Assembly: GCA_018819015.1 (NCBI GenBank)
Contig: JAHJQY010000004.1
Coordinates: 1 to 34,749, forward strand
Reading direction: 5' to 3'
DNA: 34,749 nt
Source of the DNA: Patescibacteria group bacterium
GTDB taxonomy: Bacteria > Patescibacteriota > Minisyncoccia > JAHISW01 > Tagabacteraceae
The notes below the pieces were generated by a model, which was not told where the DNA came from, did no database searches, and saw only the letters and a program-made list of their open reading frames with translations. A program made the translations under genes and the position numbers. This document shows positions 5,759 through 34,749 of this stretch, one piece after another. Position 1 is the stretch's first letter. Every line of letters begins with the position of its first letter.

Positions 5759-6511
5759 TTAGTTGTTGGAAACGCGCAATTCAACTTCTTTAGCAAGTCG
5801 TTCCTTGAAATCTTTAAGTAGTTGGTGGTGCCCGACAGGTAAAAATATCTTTAATTCTTTTTCCCAGCCGTTTTGTTTTGCCAAAAGAGCCAGTAGTTTA
5901 TCTTTCAGGTTTTCTAATTTTGGTACATAGTTTTTCAGTTCGGGATTTCTTAAAATGAAATAGAGGTCAAAGTAGTCTCGGGGCTTGGCTCTGTCCAAAA
6001 GAGCCAAAACTTTTTCAGCGACTAACTTGTTTTCTCCAAGAAAAATAATTGTGTAAGGAGGCAGAAAGTCGCTTTGTATTAAAATGCTGTTACTGCTCAT
6101 TTCTTTTGCTTGCCGAAAAGACACCTGAATTTTTATTTTAGAATTAAAATCAAGCAGTTTTAAATTAACGAGACAAAAATATCCTTCACTTGTTTCTCCT
6201 TCGGTTCCCGCGTTAACAGTTTTTTCACAATTAATGCCTTCTTTTTTAATTTCGTCCAAGGTTGCGTTAATCAATTTGTTTATATCGGCAATGGTGAGTT
6301 CGTTGGCGGCGGAAAAATCCAAGTCCTCTGAAAACCTCGGGCTTTGAAAAACTATTCGCAAGGCCGTTCCTCCCTTGAAAAGCATTTTTTCAGAGCCATT
6401 CTTCTTATAGAGATAAGATAAAAATAAATGCTGGCAGTATTCTCTGGCAATGTTTTCCTCCGATGTTTGGTTCTTGACGCTTAATTCGTTTATGAATTTA
6501 TGAGAAATCAT
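5759..6511 (-). CDS. AbiEii-family nucleotidyltransferase toxin (type IV TA, DUF1814-like)
   Basis: LFKGGTAL, RFSEDLDF, AEKVLAL, RDYFDL motifs; overlaps the upstream antitoxin by 14 bp. Confidence 0.9.
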   Translation of the reverse strand: MISHKFINELSVKNQTSEENIAREYCQHLFLSYLYKKNGSEKMLFKGGTALRIVFQSPRFSEDLDFSAANELTIADINKLINATLDEIKKEGINCEKTVNAGTEGETSEGYFCLVNLKLLDFNSKIKIQVSFRQAKEMSSNSILIQSDFLPPYTIIFLGENKLVAEKVLALLDRAKPRDYFDLYFILRNPELKNYVPKLENLKDKLLALLAKQNGWEKELKIFLPVGHHQLLKDFKERLAKEVELRVSNN

Positions 6512-7118
6512 ATTTTAGGTTTTTTACTAAATCTAAAAATGCCTTATTTTTCCTTAAATGTTTTTTGAAAAAATTAACATAAAAATCAAGTTGTTTTTTA
6601 TCTAGTTTGTTTAAGTTTAGTCGTTCGTTAATTGGTAGTTTTTTTAACGACGCCAAATATAAATAGTCCAACAAGGCTTTTTCTTTGTCTGCCATTCGTA
6701 TTGTTTTATCCCTGATTTTAACGGGCGAATAGCCAAAGAAAAAATTCTTTTTAATTTTGATGTATTGATAAGACTGGTTCTCAAATTCAAAAGTTTTTGG
6801 GGCTTTGGTGGTGGCGGAAATTATCGTATAGACGGTTTCTGGAATTAGGCCGTAATAAGACATTGCTGTTTCAAAAGATATATAAGAGGGCTGGTGCAAA
6901 TAATTGGCAATTTCAAACTTTGCCAGAAGTTCGCTGGCCAGACAGTAGGCGCCCCTTTTGAGCCTTCTAAAAGCCCCTGTTTTTGTATTGTAACTCAAAA
7001 AAGCCCGTGCCGTTTTGGGGTCTACATTAAAAGTCCTTGCGAAGTCTTTTGTAGAAAATATGCTTATTTTACGTAGCGAGAGTGTTTTTTGTACAGAAAT
7101 GAGTTTCAGTTTGTCCAT
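6498..7118 (-). CDS. AbiEi-family antitoxin / transcriptional regulator
   Basis: N-terminal wHTH-like region ending LKRGAY, PSYISFETAMSYYGLIPE, EKALLDYLY; TGCTATAAT at 7142-7150 on the minus strand. Confidence 0.88.
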   Translation of the reverse strand: MDKLKLISVQKTLSLRKISIFSTKDFARTFNVDPKTARAFLSYNTKTGAFRRLKRGAYCLASELLAKFEIANYLHQPSYISFETAMSYYGLIPETVYTIISATTKAPKTFEFENQSYQYIKIKKNFFFGYSPVKIRDKTIRMADKEKALLDYLYLASLKKLPINERLNLNKLDKKQLDFYVNFFKKHLRKNKAFLDLVKNLKYDFS

Positions 7119-10676: not shown

Positions 10677-11209
10677 TGAGAAATATAATCAGCCTTTTGT
10701 TTATCGGCGCGGCCATAGCCATGTTTTTGACCTGGACTAACCCGTATTTAAAGGAAATTGAAGAGTTGAGGGGGCAGCGGCTGGCTTTTAATGAAATTCT
10801 TGATACTTCCCGCCAGCTTGTTGAACTGCGAGACAATCTTCTTTCTAAATTTAATTTAATAACGGCCGATGAATTGTCCAAATTTTCAAAGATAATTCCG
10901 GAAAAATCCGAATCAATCAATTTTGTTTTTCAGCTGTCAAATGTGGCCGAAGCAAAAGGAGTTATTATCAAAAATATAAATTTTTACGAAGCGGTTTCTG
11001 CTGATTCTTCTTCTTCTTCTGTCGATTCAGATTACAAAAAATTAAACATAGACGCTTTTTTTCTCGGCTCCTACGAAGGCTTTAAGGCGCTTGTTGAAGA
11101 GATTGAAAACAGCCTGCGTTTAGTGGATATAAATAAGATAATTTTCTCCGCCGATAAAGAAAATTTATACGAGTTTACTATTAAGGCAACCGCTTATTTT
11201 AAAAAATAA
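10673..11209 (+). CDS. PilO-like pilus assembly protein
   Basis: N-terminal TM helix, coiled coil, IIPEK, GSYEGFK..IENSLRLVDI; ATGA-type overlap with the previous gene. Confidence 0.75.
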   Translation: MMRNIISLLFIGAAIAMFLTWTNPYLKEIEELRGQRLAFNEILDTSRQLVELRDNLLSKFNLITADELSKFSKIIPEKSESINFVFQLSNVAEAKGVIIKNINFYEAVSADSSSSSVDSDYKKLNIDAFFLGSYEGFKALVEEIENSLRLVDINKIIFSADKENLYEFTIKATAYFKK

Positions 11210-27769: not shown

Positions 27770-29073
27770 TGAATGAATTATCAAAATTTCTCACGGTATT
27801 TTTCGTCTTTTTTTTGCCGATAGGTTTTTTGCTGGCGGAAGTAATTGACCCCGGCAAGGTGCTGGAGCAGCGGGCTCAACTGGAAACGCAATTGGCTGAA
27901 ATAGAAAAGCAGATGGAAGGATATGAGAACCTCATAAAAGGCAAGCAAGTTGAAGCCACTACGTTTGAGCGAGATATTTCTATTTTGAATGCCCAGATAG
28001 ACAAAACAAAACTTGGTATTAAGGCCAGAGACATTGTTGTTGCCGAGTTGAATTCCGGCATAAAAGATTGCGCCGGCGCGATAGATAAATATGAAAAACA
28101 GATAAGCGAAGAAAAGATTTCTTTGTCGGAACTTTTGCGGAGAATGAATGAGATGGATTTTACCAATTTGGTTGAAATAGTTTTGGGGTACGAAACTTTG
28201 TCTGATTTTTTCGCGGATTTTGATTCGTTTGAATCAATACAAAAAGAAGTGCAAGCCTCGCTGTCCGAGATAAAAGACACGCAGAATAAAACGGCGGTTG
28301 AAAAATCTTCGCTTGAAGACCAGAAAACGGAACAGCTTAAATTGCGCGATATTCAAGCTCTTGAAAAGAAAAATCTTGAAAAGAAAGAAACGGAAAAGAA
28401 TAATCTCCTTAAGTCTACCAAGGGGCAGGAAGATGTTTATCAAAAAATATTGAAAGCGCGCCAAAAAGACGCCACGGCCATAAGAAGCCAGCTTTTCGTT
28501 TTGCGCGGTTCAGCCGCCATACCTTTTGAAAAGGCGGTGCAATATGCCAATTTGGCTTTTGAAAAAACCGGCGTCAGGCAAGCTTTTCTTTTGGGGGTTA
28601 TCGCTGAAGAATCAAATTTGGGAGAAAATGTCGGCACCGGCAATTGGAAAATCGATTTGGCTGATTCAAGGTGCGCGAAACAAAGAGATGCTTTTGTTGA
28701 AATTACTCTTGAGTTGGGGCTTAACCCCGATATTTTGCCGGTTTCCAAAAAAGCTTGGTACGGGTATTGCGGTGGCGCCATGGGTCCGGCCCAGTTTATG
28801 CCCACAACGTGGCTGCTTTACAAAAACAAGATATCTCAATTGACGGGCCATAACCCTCCCAGCCCATGGGATCCGCATGATGCTTTTATGGCCTCGGCGT
28901 TTCTTTTGAAAGACAATGGCGCCGCCGCCGGAGGATATACCGCCGAAAGAAGAGCGGCTTTAAGATATTTGGCGGGCGGCAATTGGAACAATCCGGCTTA
29001 CGCTTTTTACGGAGATGATGTTATGGATTTGGCGTTTAAGTACCAGGAGCAGATTGACATAATTTCGCGATAG
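27769..29073 (+). CDS. Exported coiled-coil protein with C-terminal lytic murein transglycosylase (MltB/SLT_2-like) domain
   Basis: Signal/TM helix, long heptad region, AEESNLG (putative catalytic Glu), [21 protein letters not shown]. Confidence 0.82.
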
Positions 29074-29797
29074 ATTCGGCAATTTTCTCAAAATCTCCTC
29101 CATTCAAAATCTTTTCTATATTGTGCCAGCTTTTTTTGAAGCGGTGGTCTGTAATGCGGTCTTGCATAAAATTATAAGTGCGGATTTTTTCCGACCGGTC
29201 TTGCGTTCCTATTTGCCCTTTTCGCAAATCGCCAATAGATTTAATTTTGGCTTCTTGGGCGGCCTGAATAAGTTTAGCCCTTAGAACGGTCATGGCCTCT
29301 TCTCTGTTTCTTTGCTGGCTTCTTTCACTTTCACTTTTGACAACCAGGCCGGTGGGTTTATGCGTAATGCGAACGGATGTTTCAACTTTGTTGACATTTT
29401 GGCCGCCTTTTCCTCCCGCGCGCGCGAATCCTATTTCAATATCTTCCGGGCGGATTTCAATGTCTCCTCCTTCATTTTCATACAGCGGCAAAATTGAAAC
29501 CGAGGCTGTGGAAGTATGAATGCGCCCGGATTTTTCCGTGGCCGGTATTCTTTGCACGCGATGGACTCCGGATTCGTGCCGGAGTTTTTTGTAGGCCTCG
29601 TTGTTTTTTATTTTAAAAACCACCTCTTTTATTCCTCCGAGGTCGTCTTTTGACTGGCTGATTAGTTTTGTCGGCCAATTTTGCGATTCCGCGTATCTGG
29701 AATACATTTTATAAAGACTGTCGGCAAAAAGCGCGGCTTCTTTGCCCCCGGCTCCGGCGCGGATTTCCATGATAATTCCTTTTGATTCCGTTTCCAT
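29036..29797 (-). CDS. prfA: Peptide chain release factor 1-like, lacking N-terminal domain 1
   Basis: [29 protein letters not shown] (PxT), [10 protein letters not shown] (GGQ), [14 protein letters not shown]; only 253 aa. Confidence 0.85.
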
Positions 29798-30837: not shown

Positions 30838-31284
30838 ATGGATGCTTCTAAAGTTAAAGAATTAAGAGAAAAAACCGGCGTTTCCGTGATGCTTTGCAAA
30901 AAGGCGCTGGAGGATTCAGGCGGCGACGAAGTCGGCGCCATGGAGTGGCTAAAGAAACAGGGAGTTGAGGCCGCCGAAAAAAAATCCGGCCGCAGCACTA
31001 AGGCGGGCGTTATGGAAGCTTATATCCACAACAACGGCCAAATAGGCGTTTTGGTTGAACTTCGCAGTGAAACCGATTTCGTCGCTAAAAATCCGGATTT
31101 TAAAGAAATTGCGCATAATATCGCTTTGCATATTGCCGCTTCGTGCCCTGATGGTACGAAAGATTTGCTCGAACAGCCGTATATAAAGAACCCGGAGATT
31201 ACAATCGCCGAATATCTGAATGAATCCATACAAAGATTCGGCGAAAATATAGAAATTGCCCGTTTTGAACGTTTTGTTTTGTAG
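30838..31284 (+). CDS. tsf: Elongation factor Ts, short form (148 aa)
   Basis: VKELREKTG..M.CKKAL, ELRSETDFVA, LLEQPYIK, GENIEIARF. Confidence 0.93.
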   Translation: MDASKVKELREKTGVSVMLCKKALEDSGGDEVGAMEWLKKQGVEAAEKKSGRSTKAGVMEAYIHNNGQIGVLVELRSETDFVAKNPDFKEIAHNIALHIAASCPDGTKDLLEQPYIKNPEITIAEYLNESIQRFGENIEIARFERFVL

Positions 31285-32168: not shown

Positions 32169-33038
32169 ATGGCCAATCGTCATTTATCACGAAGCATAGC
32201 CGTACAGGTTCTTTTTGAACTGGATTTTAATAATTGCCAGGGCAAAAAAGAAAAGATTGGCGATGCCCTGGAGAGAAGCTTGAAGGAATTCGCTCCGGGA
32301 ATTGAAGACAAGAATTTCGCGGAAAATTTGGTCAAAGAAGTTTTAAAAAAAAGAAAAAAAATTGATTCCATCATAGAGAAAACCGCCCCCGAGTGGCCCA
32401 TTGGCCAGATTGCTCTTGTTGACAGAAATGTTTTGAGAGTCGGTTTGTACGAACTTCTTTTCGGAAACAAAAAAGAAGTTCCGCCAAAAGTGGCGATTAA
32501 CGAAGCGATTGAGTTGGCAAAAACTTTCGGCGGAGAAACCTCCGGGAAATTTGTCAACGGGGTTTTGGGCACCGTTTATAAAGAAATTGGCGGAGACGAA
32601 AAAGATTCTCGGGATGAAATTGCCGGATTGGAAAAACTCGGCGGAGCCGTTGTTTACAAAAAAGATCCGCTGGAATTTGCTTTAGTGCATGACGTGTTCG
32701 GTTACTGGACTCTTTCCAAGGGGCATATTGAAGAAAGCGAAGACGAAAAAGCCGGCGCCGCGCGCGAGATAAAAGAGGAGCTGGGGATTGACGTGGAGAT
32801 TGAAGAGGAGCTGGGTAAAAATGAATATATTGCTTCTCATCCGGAGAAGGGTCGTATCAAAAAAAGCGTTGTTTATTTTTTGGCAAAGACTGGCGACAAA
32901 GAGTTAAAATTGGGAGATTCCGGCGGGCTTGATGACGCGAGGTGGTTTAAGCCGGAAGAGCTGGAAGGATTAACCATTTACGACGATTTAAAACCTATAA
33001 TTATCAAGGCAATTAATGCCCTGAAGGACAAGAAATAA
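32169..33038 (+). CDS. nusB: Transcription antitermination factor NusB fused to a NUDIX hydrolase
   Basis: RHLSR, DRNVLR, VAINEAIELAK.FG..SGKFVNGVLG; C-terminal NUDIX box GHIEESEDEKAGAAREIKEELG. Confidence 0.93.
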   Translation: MANRHLSRSIAVQVLFELDFNNCQGKKEKIGDALERSLKEFAPGIEDKNFAENLVKEVLKKRKKIDSIIEKTAPEWPIGQIALVDRNVLRVGLYELLFGNKKEVPPKVAINEAIELAKTFGGETSGKFVNGVLGTVYKEIGGDEKDSRDEIAGLEKLGGAVVYKKDPLEFALVHDVFGYWTLSKGHIEESEDEKAGAAREIKEELGIDVEIEEELGKNEYIASHPEKGRIKKSVVYFLAKTGDKELKLGDSGGLDDARWFKPEELEGLTIYDDLKPIIIKAINALKDKK

Positions 33039-33049
33039 AAACAAAAAAG

Positions 33050-33106
33050 TTATCCACATGTTTTGGACCAGTTTTTATAAAAAATTGGTTTTTTTTATTG
33101 TATAAT
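33050..33106 (+). promoter_or_regulatory. DnaA box plus -10 element
   Basis: TTATCCACA 33050-33058; TATAAT 33101-33106. Confidence 0.5.
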
Positions 33107-33146: not shown

Positions 33147-34749
33147 ATGAATTCGGAAAAAGATAAAATTTCGCTTAGAACAGCTTCTAGGGTTTACGGT
33201 TATACTCAACAGCACTTGGGGTTGCTTTGTCGTCAAGGAAAACTAAAATCAGTCAGGGTTGGAAAAAAAAGATTTACAACTAAAAAATGGATGGATGAAT
33301 ACTTGAAGGAACTGGAAGATTTTTATAAAAAGCAGGACAGAACAAATAACGACGCAGAAAAATGGCCGTATATTCAGAATATTAATTTCAAAAAATTTGT
33401 TCCGTTGGCTCTAATACCACCCGCGGTTTTTTTGTTCTTGTTTTTTGTTTCCAGGTCTGGATTACCCGTCTATGCTGCTGAACTAAAAAAGGCATTAAAA
33501 CCAGCCATGGAGTCGGCGGCAGAATTTGTTTTGGATACAAGCAAAAACATAACTTCTTTTTCGGCTTCTGTGCCGACATCGCTGGGAGAGAGTGTTAGAG
33601 AAAATTTAAACAGTTTTGGAAATAAAACCAAAGAAAATATTTCTTCTTTTGTTGATGATACAAAAAGAATATTTAAAAATGTGAACGACGGCTACGCCGC
33701 GCTTCCGCAGAAAGTAAAAGAAGCAAAAGAAGCTATCGTTGAGTTTTTTATCGCAGAGCAGCAAACAAAAATCGTGGAAGTTAAAAAAGAAACAATCGTT
33801 TCTTCAGAAGTAGAAACCATCAGGGCTGAACTTTCCGCGCTTAAAAAATCTGGACTTACTGTTCAAACAGCCGTCGTAGAAAGAACAATAGAAAAAATTC
33901 TTTCAGGCTTGCCAGGCCAAAGCTTTGCGGCGGCGGGAATAACTCAAAACGATCTAAACAATCTTAATGCCTCTCTTCTTTCACAGATTGATTCTTTGAA
34001 ACAGGAATTTCAGAAACAAATCCAGGGAAGTTATTCTGCCATGGCGCTTACCCAAAGAGTTAATTACATCTCCGCGCCGACCATAACAACGCCGACCATC
34101 TCCGCGCCGAAGATTTCCGGAAACGCTTCTTTGGAAAATCTTACCACTTCCGGCTGGGCCACTATCGGCACGACTCTTTCAGCCGTCACTGCCATCTCGG
34201 CCGGCACTACCCTGACAGCCGGAGCCACCACCACCTTGGCCAGCGACCTCGTCGTTGACACGAACACTTTTTTTCTCAACGCTTCCTCAAACAAAATCGG
34301 CCTTGGCACCACTTCTCCTCGAGCTTCCCTGCACATCGGAACAACCACTCCTGCTTACGCCGTCAATGACGGAGATCTTTTTGTTTCCAACATCGCTGAA
34401 ATCGGCAGTCAGCTCTACGTCAACGGAGTTCAAATGACCGGCGGTGGCACTCTCAACCTCGGCTTTACCAACGGTTCGGTTGTCTTCTCTGATTCCTTGG
34501 GCAACCTCACTCAAGACAACGCCAGCTTTTTCTACGATGACACCAATAACCGTTTGGGCATCGGGACAACCTCTCCTTACGCCAAGCTGTCCGTCTGGGG
34601 TTCATCAGCCGGCACAGCCAAACTCTTTGAACTGACCAACAGCGCGTCAACAAGCTTAATGTCTGTTTTGGAAAACGGACAATGCGTTACCGGCGATACG
34701 CTTTTGCCGATTGTTCGGCAAGAGAGTCAGGAAACCAAAAAATCCGCCA
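33147..34749 (+). CDS. Large protein, 3'-truncated by the window: N-terminal HTH, TM helix, coiled coil, GIGTTSP beta-rich repeats, intein/Hint N-terminus
   Basis: Manual translation is open from ATG 33147 to the window end (534 codons; absent from the track because there is no stop). ISLRTASRVYGYTQQHLGLLCRQGKL HTH; IGLGTTSP and LGIGTTSP; GQ|CVTGDTLLPIV at 34683. Confidence 0.85.
   Translation, partial: MNSEKDKISLRTASRVYGYTQQHLGLLCRQGKLKSVRVGKKRFTTKKWMDEYLKELEDFYKKQDRTNNDAEKWPYIQNINFKKFVPLALIPPAVFLFLFFVSRSGLPVYAAELKKALKPAMESAAEFVLDTSKNITSFSASVPTSLGESVRENLNSFGNKTKENISSFVDDTKRIFKNVNDGYAALPQKVKEAKEAIVEFFIAEQQTKIVEVKKETIVSSEVETIRAELSALKKSGLTVQTAVVERTIEKILSGLPGQSFAAAGITQNDLNNLNASLLSQIDSLKQEFQKQIQGSYSAMALTQRVNYISAPTITTPTISAPKISGNASLENLTTSGWATIGTTLSAVTAISAGTTLTAGATTTLASDLVVDTNTFFLNASSNKIGLGTTSPRASLHIGTTTPAYAVNDGDLFVSNIAEIGSQLYVNGVQMTGGGTLNLGFTNGSVVFSDSLGNLTQDNASFFYDDTNNRLGIGTTSPYAKLSVWGSSAGTAKLFELTNSASTSLMSVLENGQCVTGDTLLPIVRQESQETKKSA

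Follow-up and report, generated by a model that had tools for sequence, protein, structure and literature searches.

Introduction

Is the short Cys-x-x-G-D-T motif at the cut end of a bacterial fibre gene the start of an intein, and what would an intein do in such a gene? Inteins are usually described at conserved sites in replication and repair enzymes, and I found no paper linking inteins with fibre proteins of the candidate phyla radiation (CPR). The motif lies in the last gene of contig JAHJQY010000004.1 (assembly GCA_018819015.1) from a Patescibacteria group bacterium of the family Tagabacteraceae. The window analysed in this study is the entire contig of 34,749 nucleotides, and therefore there is no DNA downstream of position 34749 to read.

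The gene was pointed out in an interpretation of the letters alone, hereafter the original prediction, as an uninterrupted frame from 33147 that the list of open reading frames (ORFs) had missed. It was found that the frame is open for 534 codons with zero stops up to the contig end, and it is absent from the list because it runs off the contig. The exact 534-residue fragment is present in a protein database, and the whole fragment has no match reaching threshold in curated family libraries. Taken together with its relatives, the gene is likely to encode a membrane-anchored fibre interrupted by a class-1 intein, which belongs to a multi-copy family specialised in such fibres.

The probable intein and its family

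From residue 513, the window protein reads ENGQ/CVTGDTLLPIVRQESQETKKSA, and then the contig ends (a slash marks an intein boundary throughout). The Cys codon occupies 34683-34685 in the context ENGQ/CVTGDTLLPIV, just where the original prediction had put the start of a Hint module. As in class-1 inteins, there is an N-terminal nucleophile in block A (C513), and the 11 residues of this block are identical to those of 48 non-redundant family sites. Since the 22 intein residues are too few for significance alone, the same sequence was examined in other genomes.

When about 185,000 reference genomes were scanned at the DNA level with the degenerate pattern C-V-T-G-D-T-L-L-P-x-V, 9 sites came up, where chance would give an estimated 0.3 or so. 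All nine open intein-like modules with a block B (TTGNHPY), a long variable insert, a C-terminal VYDIEVEGTHNFVANGI(I/V)AHN, and then Thr. Scanning metagenomes for GQ/CVTGDTLLP gave 44 further sites, and the 48 non-redundant sites mentioned above result from pooling both sets. Block B (TTGNHP) is present in 30 of the 32 non-redundant sites with at least 200 residues downstream. Wherever a complete module has a visible C-extein, HN is followed by Thr at +1 (21/21). EGQ occupies positions -3 to -1 in 34 of the 48 sites. Thus, the same block A continues into intein blocks at the public sites with enough sequence.

Profile searches gave the same picture. All six tested modules passed PF14890 (Intein_splicing) with 61-88 bits against a cut-off of 35.8, three of three exceeded the intein C-terminus model TIGR01443 (36-43 bits against 15.6), and one was above the threshold of TIGR01445 (29 bits against 24.5). 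Pretoxin-HINT (PF07591; PT-HINT) and Hog-Hint gave sub-threshold matches only, the best PT-HINT score being 27.1 bits against 27.7. The Pretoxin-HINT domain of polymorphic toxins was rejected as an identity, since it scores far below Intein_splicing and the C-exteins are more fibre repeats without a toxin domain. The closest solved structures to a family member are the DnaB mini-inteins 4o1r (E 1e-18) and 1mi8 (E 7e-14). Judged by their sequences, the relatives' modules are a canonical class-1 intein family related to DnaB mini-inteins. The module had been described as self-cleaving or self-splicing; Cys1, TxxH, HN and Thr+1 of the relatives speak for the splicing half of this description and against a merely self-cleaving Hint domain. 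A homing endonuclease had been suggested for a check, and no endonuclease family was found at E<=0.1 in the modules of six relatives.

From the 22 window residues and from the family, it is very probable that an intein of this fibre-gene family starts at C513. Blocks B, F and G and the +1 Thr of the window copy would then lie beyond the contig end.

Where does the family reside? The typical junction is GNVGIGTTxPxxKLHVEGQ/intein/TYISGN(V/L)GIGTT, i.e., the intein sits between two repeat units. Some ORFs have two or three intein copies (L002, L004, and L048), and L036 has three. A contiguous empty junction was found neither among 520 ORFs nor, as LHVEGQTYI, in the approximately 185,000 reference genomes. 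A phage origin was considered and rejected, because the block-A pattern was absent from viral contigs and the context of the window is chromosomal.

The L036 population gives a hint of how the copies may change in number. In a divergent strain, the second intein follows directly on the first N-extein, the join lying in only 20 shared nucleotides (Q-CVTGDT), and another contig jumps across a 32-nucleotide direct repeat in the N-exteins. The latter jump is ambiguous because 32 nucleotides equals the word length of the assembler. The reads of L036 revealed repeat-mediated jumps only and no precise presence/absence polymorphism of the intein. In the most economical reading, the intein and its flanking repeat would multiply together as one cassette through homologous recombination, or else homing by an unrecognised nuclease might be at work.

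The inserts between the blocks are variable and of low complexity, and hundreds of codons are kept open in all modules. In L036, the insert after block A (10959-11085) is built from a GAAAATTG-type low-complexity repeat, and similar peptides (...WDLEIGNCLEIG... and ...ENCKIENSLKIENCKLKI...) occur in the inserts of the L002 and L007 inteins. In hot-spring metagenomes, the GAAAATTG-type repeat is up to about 700-fold deeper than the flanking gene, and at least about 180-fold in three of four runs. The inteins have therefore taken up, in frame, a short repeat that pervades these communities.

Is the window copy itself part of a multi-copy element? I compared the window end with Logan assemblies from four independent groundwater runs. 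The unitig covering 34609 onward has about twice the preceding depth, rising from 29 to 61 in X1, from 6.5 to 28 in X2, and from 5 to 11 in X3. In X3, one intein start is reached from two different versions of the last N-extein codons (…NSASTSLMSVLENGQ and …NNASTTLMSVLENGQ), and in X2 the join to an unrelated fibre context (…GAGAKLHVE) is at 34677. In X5, yet another context (…PTYPLHVTGE) is joined precisely at the first base of the Cys codon (34683), with divergence following block A, and a variant in X6 diverges after 34708. The fibre-to-intein junction was assembled independently in X1, X2, X3, and X7. Thus, the similarity boundary coincides with the predicted N-terminus of the intein, as expected for a discrete element that recurs, either in different genes or repeatedly within one. 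The contig breaks 22 codons into the intein because the element is repeated. Many relatives are likewise annotated as partial at contig ends, or their contigs stop just past block A, and so the repeated intein explains the frequent partial fibre genes at CPR contig ends.

Relatives of the gene were also reached by a route that is independent of the block-A motif, using residues 1-120 as the query, which contain no Hint sequence. This head-only search recovered P0096/P0209 and P0085/P0206, both with the layout HTH-fibre-intein-fibre (HTH, helix-turn-helix). The former pair reads ...GRVGIGTSSPSQALSVLGH/CVTGDS...(270 residues)...GIVAHN/TYLDGN..., and the latter ...KLHVEGQ/CVTGDT...(495 residues)...AHN/TYISGNVGIGTT.... 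The P0096 gene is complete and lies within a contig of 33 kb (L052), and its protein has a precomputed Intein_splicing match. The window protein is collinear with P0209, the cluster-mate of P0096, from the HTH through the GIGT-SP repeat before the intein (E 2e-34), and it is also collinear with P0002 (E 1e-52). Therefore, the full architecture guessed from the window does exist in relatives. The word 'giant' in the original prediction is unsupported, since 534 residues are visible in the window and the complete relatives range from 827 to 2,924 residues (P0206); the closest complete one, P0096, has 827, only 63 of which follow the intein.

The fibre gene

The original prediction had read an excisionase/MerR-like HTH, one transmembrane (TM) helix, GIGTTSP-type repeats, and a turn to C-rich codons from about 34060. 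Each of these features was recovered, and their coordinates are collected in Table 1.

For the first 73 residues, HTH_17 (PF12728) is the top match with 16 bits, below the gathering cut-off of 27, and it is also the top match for the N-termini of three divergent relatives (16-21 bits). An exhaustive search with residues 1-120 gave 1,103 cluster representatives at E<=1e-3, and 52 of the 60 homologues scanned match HTH_17 at E<=0.01, with a best E of 5e-13. An AlphaFold model of the head, built from a four-sequence alignment, has a predicted local distance difference test score (pLDDT) of 83.7 overall and of 89-94 over residues 11-60. In Foldseek, this model is closest to TraN, the RdfS excisionase, Pukovnik Xis and the MerR-type NmlR, with probabilities of 0.89-0.99 (0.97-0.99 for Xis, TraN, and RdfS) and root mean square deviations of 1.3-2.7 A; the E-values are only about 0.1-0.5 because the HTH domain is short. 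A profile search of the HTH alignment against PDB sequences gave nothing significant. The predicted structure has the winged-helix fold of the Xis/MerR type, and by this fold the N-terminus is an excisionase/MerR-type HTH of the DNA-binding type.

The HTH is followed by one strong hydropathy peak, at residues 84-102. The same order, with the HTH present once or twice and a single TM helix after it, is seen in 101 of the 148 best relatives of the head, whose lengths range from 74 to 6,890 residues, the giants being rich in GIGT-type repeats. The named relatives are all annotated as 'hypothetical protein' and come from Patescibacteria/CPR genomes (Paceibacterota, Nealsonbacteria, and Portnoybacteria), and the window DNA was found in groundwater metagenomes. 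Among the 1,103 cluster representatives, the HTH-TM head is joined to very different C-terminal regions. It is, as far as these homologies tell, a very widespread and unannotated anchor module of CPR proteins that is not peculiar to the window gene. The idea that this protein ties DNA to a fibre is thus speculation.

Downstream of the TM helix, the helix-rich region shares ITQxDLxNLN and ALTQ motifs with P0209. Where the original prediction saw a coiled coil, a structure model of the whole fragment has just low-confidence helices at 107-305, and strands from about residue 326; its pLDDT is 40.7, and it is uninformative beyond the HTH. In the fibre region, IGLGTTSP lies at 34296-34319 and LGIGTTSP at 34554-34577. 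Most of the database similarity of the window protein is due to such GIGTTSP-type motifs, and some of the matching GIGTT-repeat proteins carry a Peptidase_S74 tail-fibre chaperone domain or a glycine-rich domain.

The codon usage changes sharply within the gene. The frequency of C at third positions is 0.135 in the first 912 nucleotides (33147-34058) versus 0.476 in 34059-34682, and it is 0.185 in 17 other window genes used as the reference set. In 34059-34682, there are 99 C-ending codons against 51.8 expected from the synonymous usage of the genome. Several related fibre regions also have more C than G at third positions. For one hot-spring community, the DNA-level abundance of the fibre repeat unit exceeds that of its flanks by a factor of hundreds. 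The codon bias and the repeat abundance would fit an exchange of fibre modules between genomes.

Strain-level bubbles were observed in the assembly graph at about 33884-34161, with alternative unitigs at 33884-34001 and 34052-34161 in X1. In this run, the segment has two alleles of roughly equal depth with 8-10 differences per about 100 nucleotides. The codon-usage switch and the 15-nucleotide tandem repeat both fall inside it. The segment is likely a recombination or hypervariable joint between the head/stalk and the fibre modules. Upstream of the gene, a scan for promoters and terminators found no consensus sites, and TATAAT can be read at 33101-33106.

Table 1. Features of the window and tRNA-like copies in other loci (window positions unless a locus is named)
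Feature	Position	Strand	Evidence or remarks
5' part of the HTH-TM-fibre protein gene, cut by the contig end	33147..34749	+	Translation; collinearity with P0209 and P0002
Excisionase/MerR-type winged HTH (HTH_17-like), residues ~7-60	33165..33326	+	Profile, AlphaFold, Foldseek
Single predicted TM helix, residues ~85-103	33399..33455	+	Kyte-Doolittle maximum 2.33 at 84-102; model helix 87-103
Helix-rich region, possible stalk, residues ~107-305	33465..34061	+	DSSP helices in low-confidence model; collinear with P0209
Thr/Ser/Gly-rich beta-type fibre region	34059..34682	+	C-ending codon bias; GIGTTSP-type motifs; homology to GIGTT-repeat proteins
15-nucleotide tandem repeat, ISAPT-like pentapeptide units	34066-34119	+	Tandem Repeats Finder; start of C-rich part
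Segment with at least two copies in source populations (last 25 N-extein codons and intein start)	34609..34749	+	Unitig depth; converging variants
First 22 intein codons: Cys1 and block A (CVTGDTLLPIV), then start of variable low-complexity insert (RQESQETKKSA)	34683..34749	+	Block A identity; context junctions
AbiEii toxin/AbiEi antitoxin pair	5759-7118	-	Between SecA and tRNA cluster
Release-factor gene	29036-29797	-	253 residues; matches PCRF positions 97-194 and RF-1 domain
EF-Ts gene	30838-31284	+	148 residues
NusB (residues 7-138)-NUDIX hydrolase (178-267) fusion	32169-33038	+	Directly upstream of the fibre gene
tRNA-like copy	L004 655-731	+
tRNA-like copy	L006 1635-1711	-
tRNA-like copy	L052 7947-8022	-
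tRNA-like copy	L035 1900-1975	+
tRNA-like copy	L041 3298-3373	+	No recognised intein start nearby
tRNA-like copy	L041 319-395	+
tRNA-like copy	L010 6047-6123	-
tRNA-like copy	L045 2986-3062	+
Stand-alone tRNA-like copy (example)	L053 3961-4032
Stand-alone tRNA-like copy (example)	L055 6775-6845
Stand-alone tRNA-like copy (example)	L061 562-633
Stand-alone tRNA-like copy (example)	L062 1697-1765

A tRNA-like element in the inteins of relatives

It was noticed that the same insert peptides (GIEPP... and GNRTPE...) recur in unrelated family members, and they were traced to an element of about 75 nucleotides on the opposite strand. The Rfam model of transfer-messenger RNA matches the element with both model ends, i.e., its tRNA-like domain, at 26-39 bits, short of the gathering score of 47, with a lowest E-value of 2e-12. 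Structurally, the element combines a 7-bp acceptor stem, a mini D-arm, a 9-bp hairpin replacing the anticodon arm, and a canonical T-arm; there is no anticodon-type loop. True tRNA genes inside inteins were considered and rejected: ARAGORN and the tRNA model gave no match, and covariance models show a tRNA-like, non-canonical structure. The element matches no curated family's threshold. I found no paper linking tRNA-like elements with inteins.

Eight strong copies were detected with a covariance model. Each of them is antisense to a host ORF that remains open across it, and seven of the eight lie between the intein block A/B and the C-terminal blocks (Table 1). Aligned with MAFFT, the copies show 100% pairing in the acceptor and T helices, including many double changes, and the observed covariation was reached by none of 500 shuffles. 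G1-C72, G2-C71, G3.U70, and A73 are invariant; G3.U70 and A73 make up the alanine identity set. A genome scan gave 12 further copies in CPR-type bins, three of them in inteins, one in a long antisense ORF, and eight standing alone between genes, and two stand-alone copies have an encoded CCA end. The element is not in the window, where the weak matches to its model are five ordinary tRNA genes and one match at E 0.88 that was taken as noise.

Gene neighbourhood

The fibre gene lies in an ordinary bacterial chromosome context with genes for SecA, MurB, a PilM/PilB/PilC pilus cluster, LigA, GatA, ribosomal proteins S2, L31 and L25, EF-Ts, and a release factor. The release-factor gene starts directly at the stop of the L31 gene, and its product has no counterpart of the N-terminal domain found in RF1/RF2. 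Either a shortened CPR release factor or a rescue factor of the PrfH/ArfB type is conceivable. EF-Ts is also shortened, its match to the EF_TS core-domain profile being confined to positions 1-75 of 204. The AbiEii/AbiEi pair is a type IV toxin-antitoxin system of the abortive-infection type.

Discussion

What would the complete gene make? The product would be a single-pass membrane protein of a Patescibacteria/CPR bacterium. Its HTH head would stay in the cytoplasm with the TM helix acting as a signal anchor, while the helix-rich stalk and the beta-rich GIGTTSP-repeat fibre would lie outside. The fibre would be interrupted at residue 513 by the class-1 intein, and the intein would be excised autocatalytically after translation by an N-S acyl shift at Cys1, trans-esterification to the +1 Thr, and cyclisation of the terminal Asn. 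As a result, ...ENGQ would be ligated to a Thr-initiated fibre segment, either before or after translocation. Production of the fibre would thus require both read-through of the intein and its splicing. Spread and changes in copy number would occur together with the flanking repeat through recombination between repeats or intein ends, not by endonuclease homing. For the window copy, I infer the splicing, the membrane topology, and the mode of spread.

Several points weigh against this explanation. The window holds only 22 intein residues, which alone match no profile (including PF14890 and TIGR01445), and its N-extein SVLENGQ differs from the usual KLHVEGQ of the family. Exact-match scans of genome and metagenome contigs for a continuation past 34749 found nothing, a 47-residue protein query found no candidate in the index, and the Logan contigs overhang the window end by 13-153 nucleotides. 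The window copy may therefore be truncated, frameshifted or inactive. The topology is deduced from the HTH and one hydropathy peak, the fibre part has no usable structural model (pLDDT 40.7 for the whole fragment), and any splicing outside the cytoplasm is hypothetical for all members. In one metatranscriptome from a matching study, the fibre gene had no coverage.

Could the module rather resemble a bacterial intein-like (BIL) or pretoxin-HINT domain, which mainly cleaves and thereby releases or diversifies the distal part of a variable secreted protein? The location would suit the definition of BIL domains, since the host is a non-conserved, repeat-rich surface protein with several copies per protein and no endonuclease (PMC7765530), and PT-HINT matches do exist below the threshold (27.1 bits against 27.7). 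However, the full splicing set of Cys1, TxxH, terminal HN, and +1 Thr is present in 21 of 21 complete relatives with a visible C-extein. Intein_splicing is by far the best profile, the C-terminal intein model is above its cut-off too, and what follows the module is more fibre and not a toxin domain. A cleaving module is therefore unlikely. It is somewhat less likely still that the window copy is a dead or truncated intein remnant, or that the gene is a pseudogene whose fibre is never completed. Such an outcome would agree with the unseen downstream half, with the missing RNA in the one metatranscriptome, and with some metagenomic relatives (L011, L038, and L044) that stop without a recognisable C-terminal block. 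On the other hand, the 534-codon frame is intact, its block A is identical to that of active-looking relatives, and the same junction sequence appears at good depth in at least four independent samples. In the complete relatives, the long variable inserts have stayed open, an argument for selection on read-through.

A chance resemblance of the Cys-x-x-G-D-T motif, or an assembly chimera of a fibre gene and an unrelated repeat, would be another explanation. The last 141 nucleotides do come from a unitig of higher depth, joined via a k-1 overlap. Nevertheless, the 11 identical residues open an intein-like module at nine of nine genome-scan matches, with block B present at 30 of 32 sites, the junction was independently assembled in four runs (X1, X2, X3, and X7), and the fibre-intein architecture is the norm among the relatives. 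This explanation is thus highly improbable, and a fibre gene interrupted by a splicing intein remains the best reading of the locus.

How does the family compare with known systems? It shares with the DnaB-type class-1 mini-inteins (Npu/Ssp DnaB; 4o1r and 1mi8) the Cys1 block A, the TxxH block B (TTGNHPY), the block F/G ...THNFVANGI(I/V)AHN, a +1 nucleophile (Thr in the family), and the absence of an endonuclease domain. Unlike DnaB mini-inteins, it resides in a non-conserved, repeat-rich and probably extracellular fibre instead of a conserved motif of a replication protein, with up to three copies per protein and at least two large variable low-complexity inserts. Moreover, no empty target site was found, and conservation is higher in the flanking extein residues than in the repeats around them.

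The GIGTTSP-type repeats are shared with proteins that carry Peptidase_S74 (PF13884), the C-terminal chaperone domain of phage tail-fibre/endosialidase-type fibres, and both kinds of fibre would involve self-processing in maturation. The window gene differs in being chromosomal and cellular, in its HTH-TM anchor, and in having a predicted internal intein instead of the C-terminal S74 chaperone; the intein pattern is absent from viral contigs, as described above. The topology proposed here would resemble that of the ToxR/CadC membrane-tethered one-component regulators, whose DNA-binding domain is N-terminal and cytoplasmic, followed by one TM helix and a C-terminal domain outside the cytoplasm. 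However, the window protein has an HTH_17 (excisionase/MerR-like) domain and not an OmpR-type winged helix, and its outside part would be a fibre of hundreds to thousands of residues.

BIL domains are Hint-fold modules in hypervariable regions of non-conserved bacterial proteins; they lack homing endonucleases, have been proposed to generate post-translational variability, and set a precedent for Hint domains in secreted proteins (PMC7765530). Type-A BIL domains undergo C-terminal cleavage without ligation of their flanks, and type-B domains have no C-terminal intein motif (Amitai et al. 2003, as described in PMC7765530). The location in variable surface proteins is common to BIL domains and the present family. 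Membership in BIL type A or B was rejected for the family, against which the HN and Thr in 21 of 21 modules and the intein-level scores speak.

It is tempting to go one step further and to regard the fibre-resident inteins as a CPR-specific maturation and diversification system and not just as selfish passengers. Splicing would be needed to complete the fibre, maybe after export, recombination would shuffle the modules, and the tolerant intein interior would shelter other elements, including the antisense tRNA-like RNA, which would also form a small stand-alone gene in Patescibacteria. I consider this bolder view doubtful.

What the relatives reveal is a chemically canonical intein family that appears to have specialised on the junctions between repeats in the surface-fibre genes of ultra-small, host-dependent bacteria. 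With its multiple copies, no endonuclease, and no detectable empty site, the family blurs the boundary between inteins and BIL domains. It may offer a system for three questions: can splicing take place outside the cytoplasm, by what route do inteins without an endonuclease spread, and is the assembly of putative host-contact structures gated by splicing?

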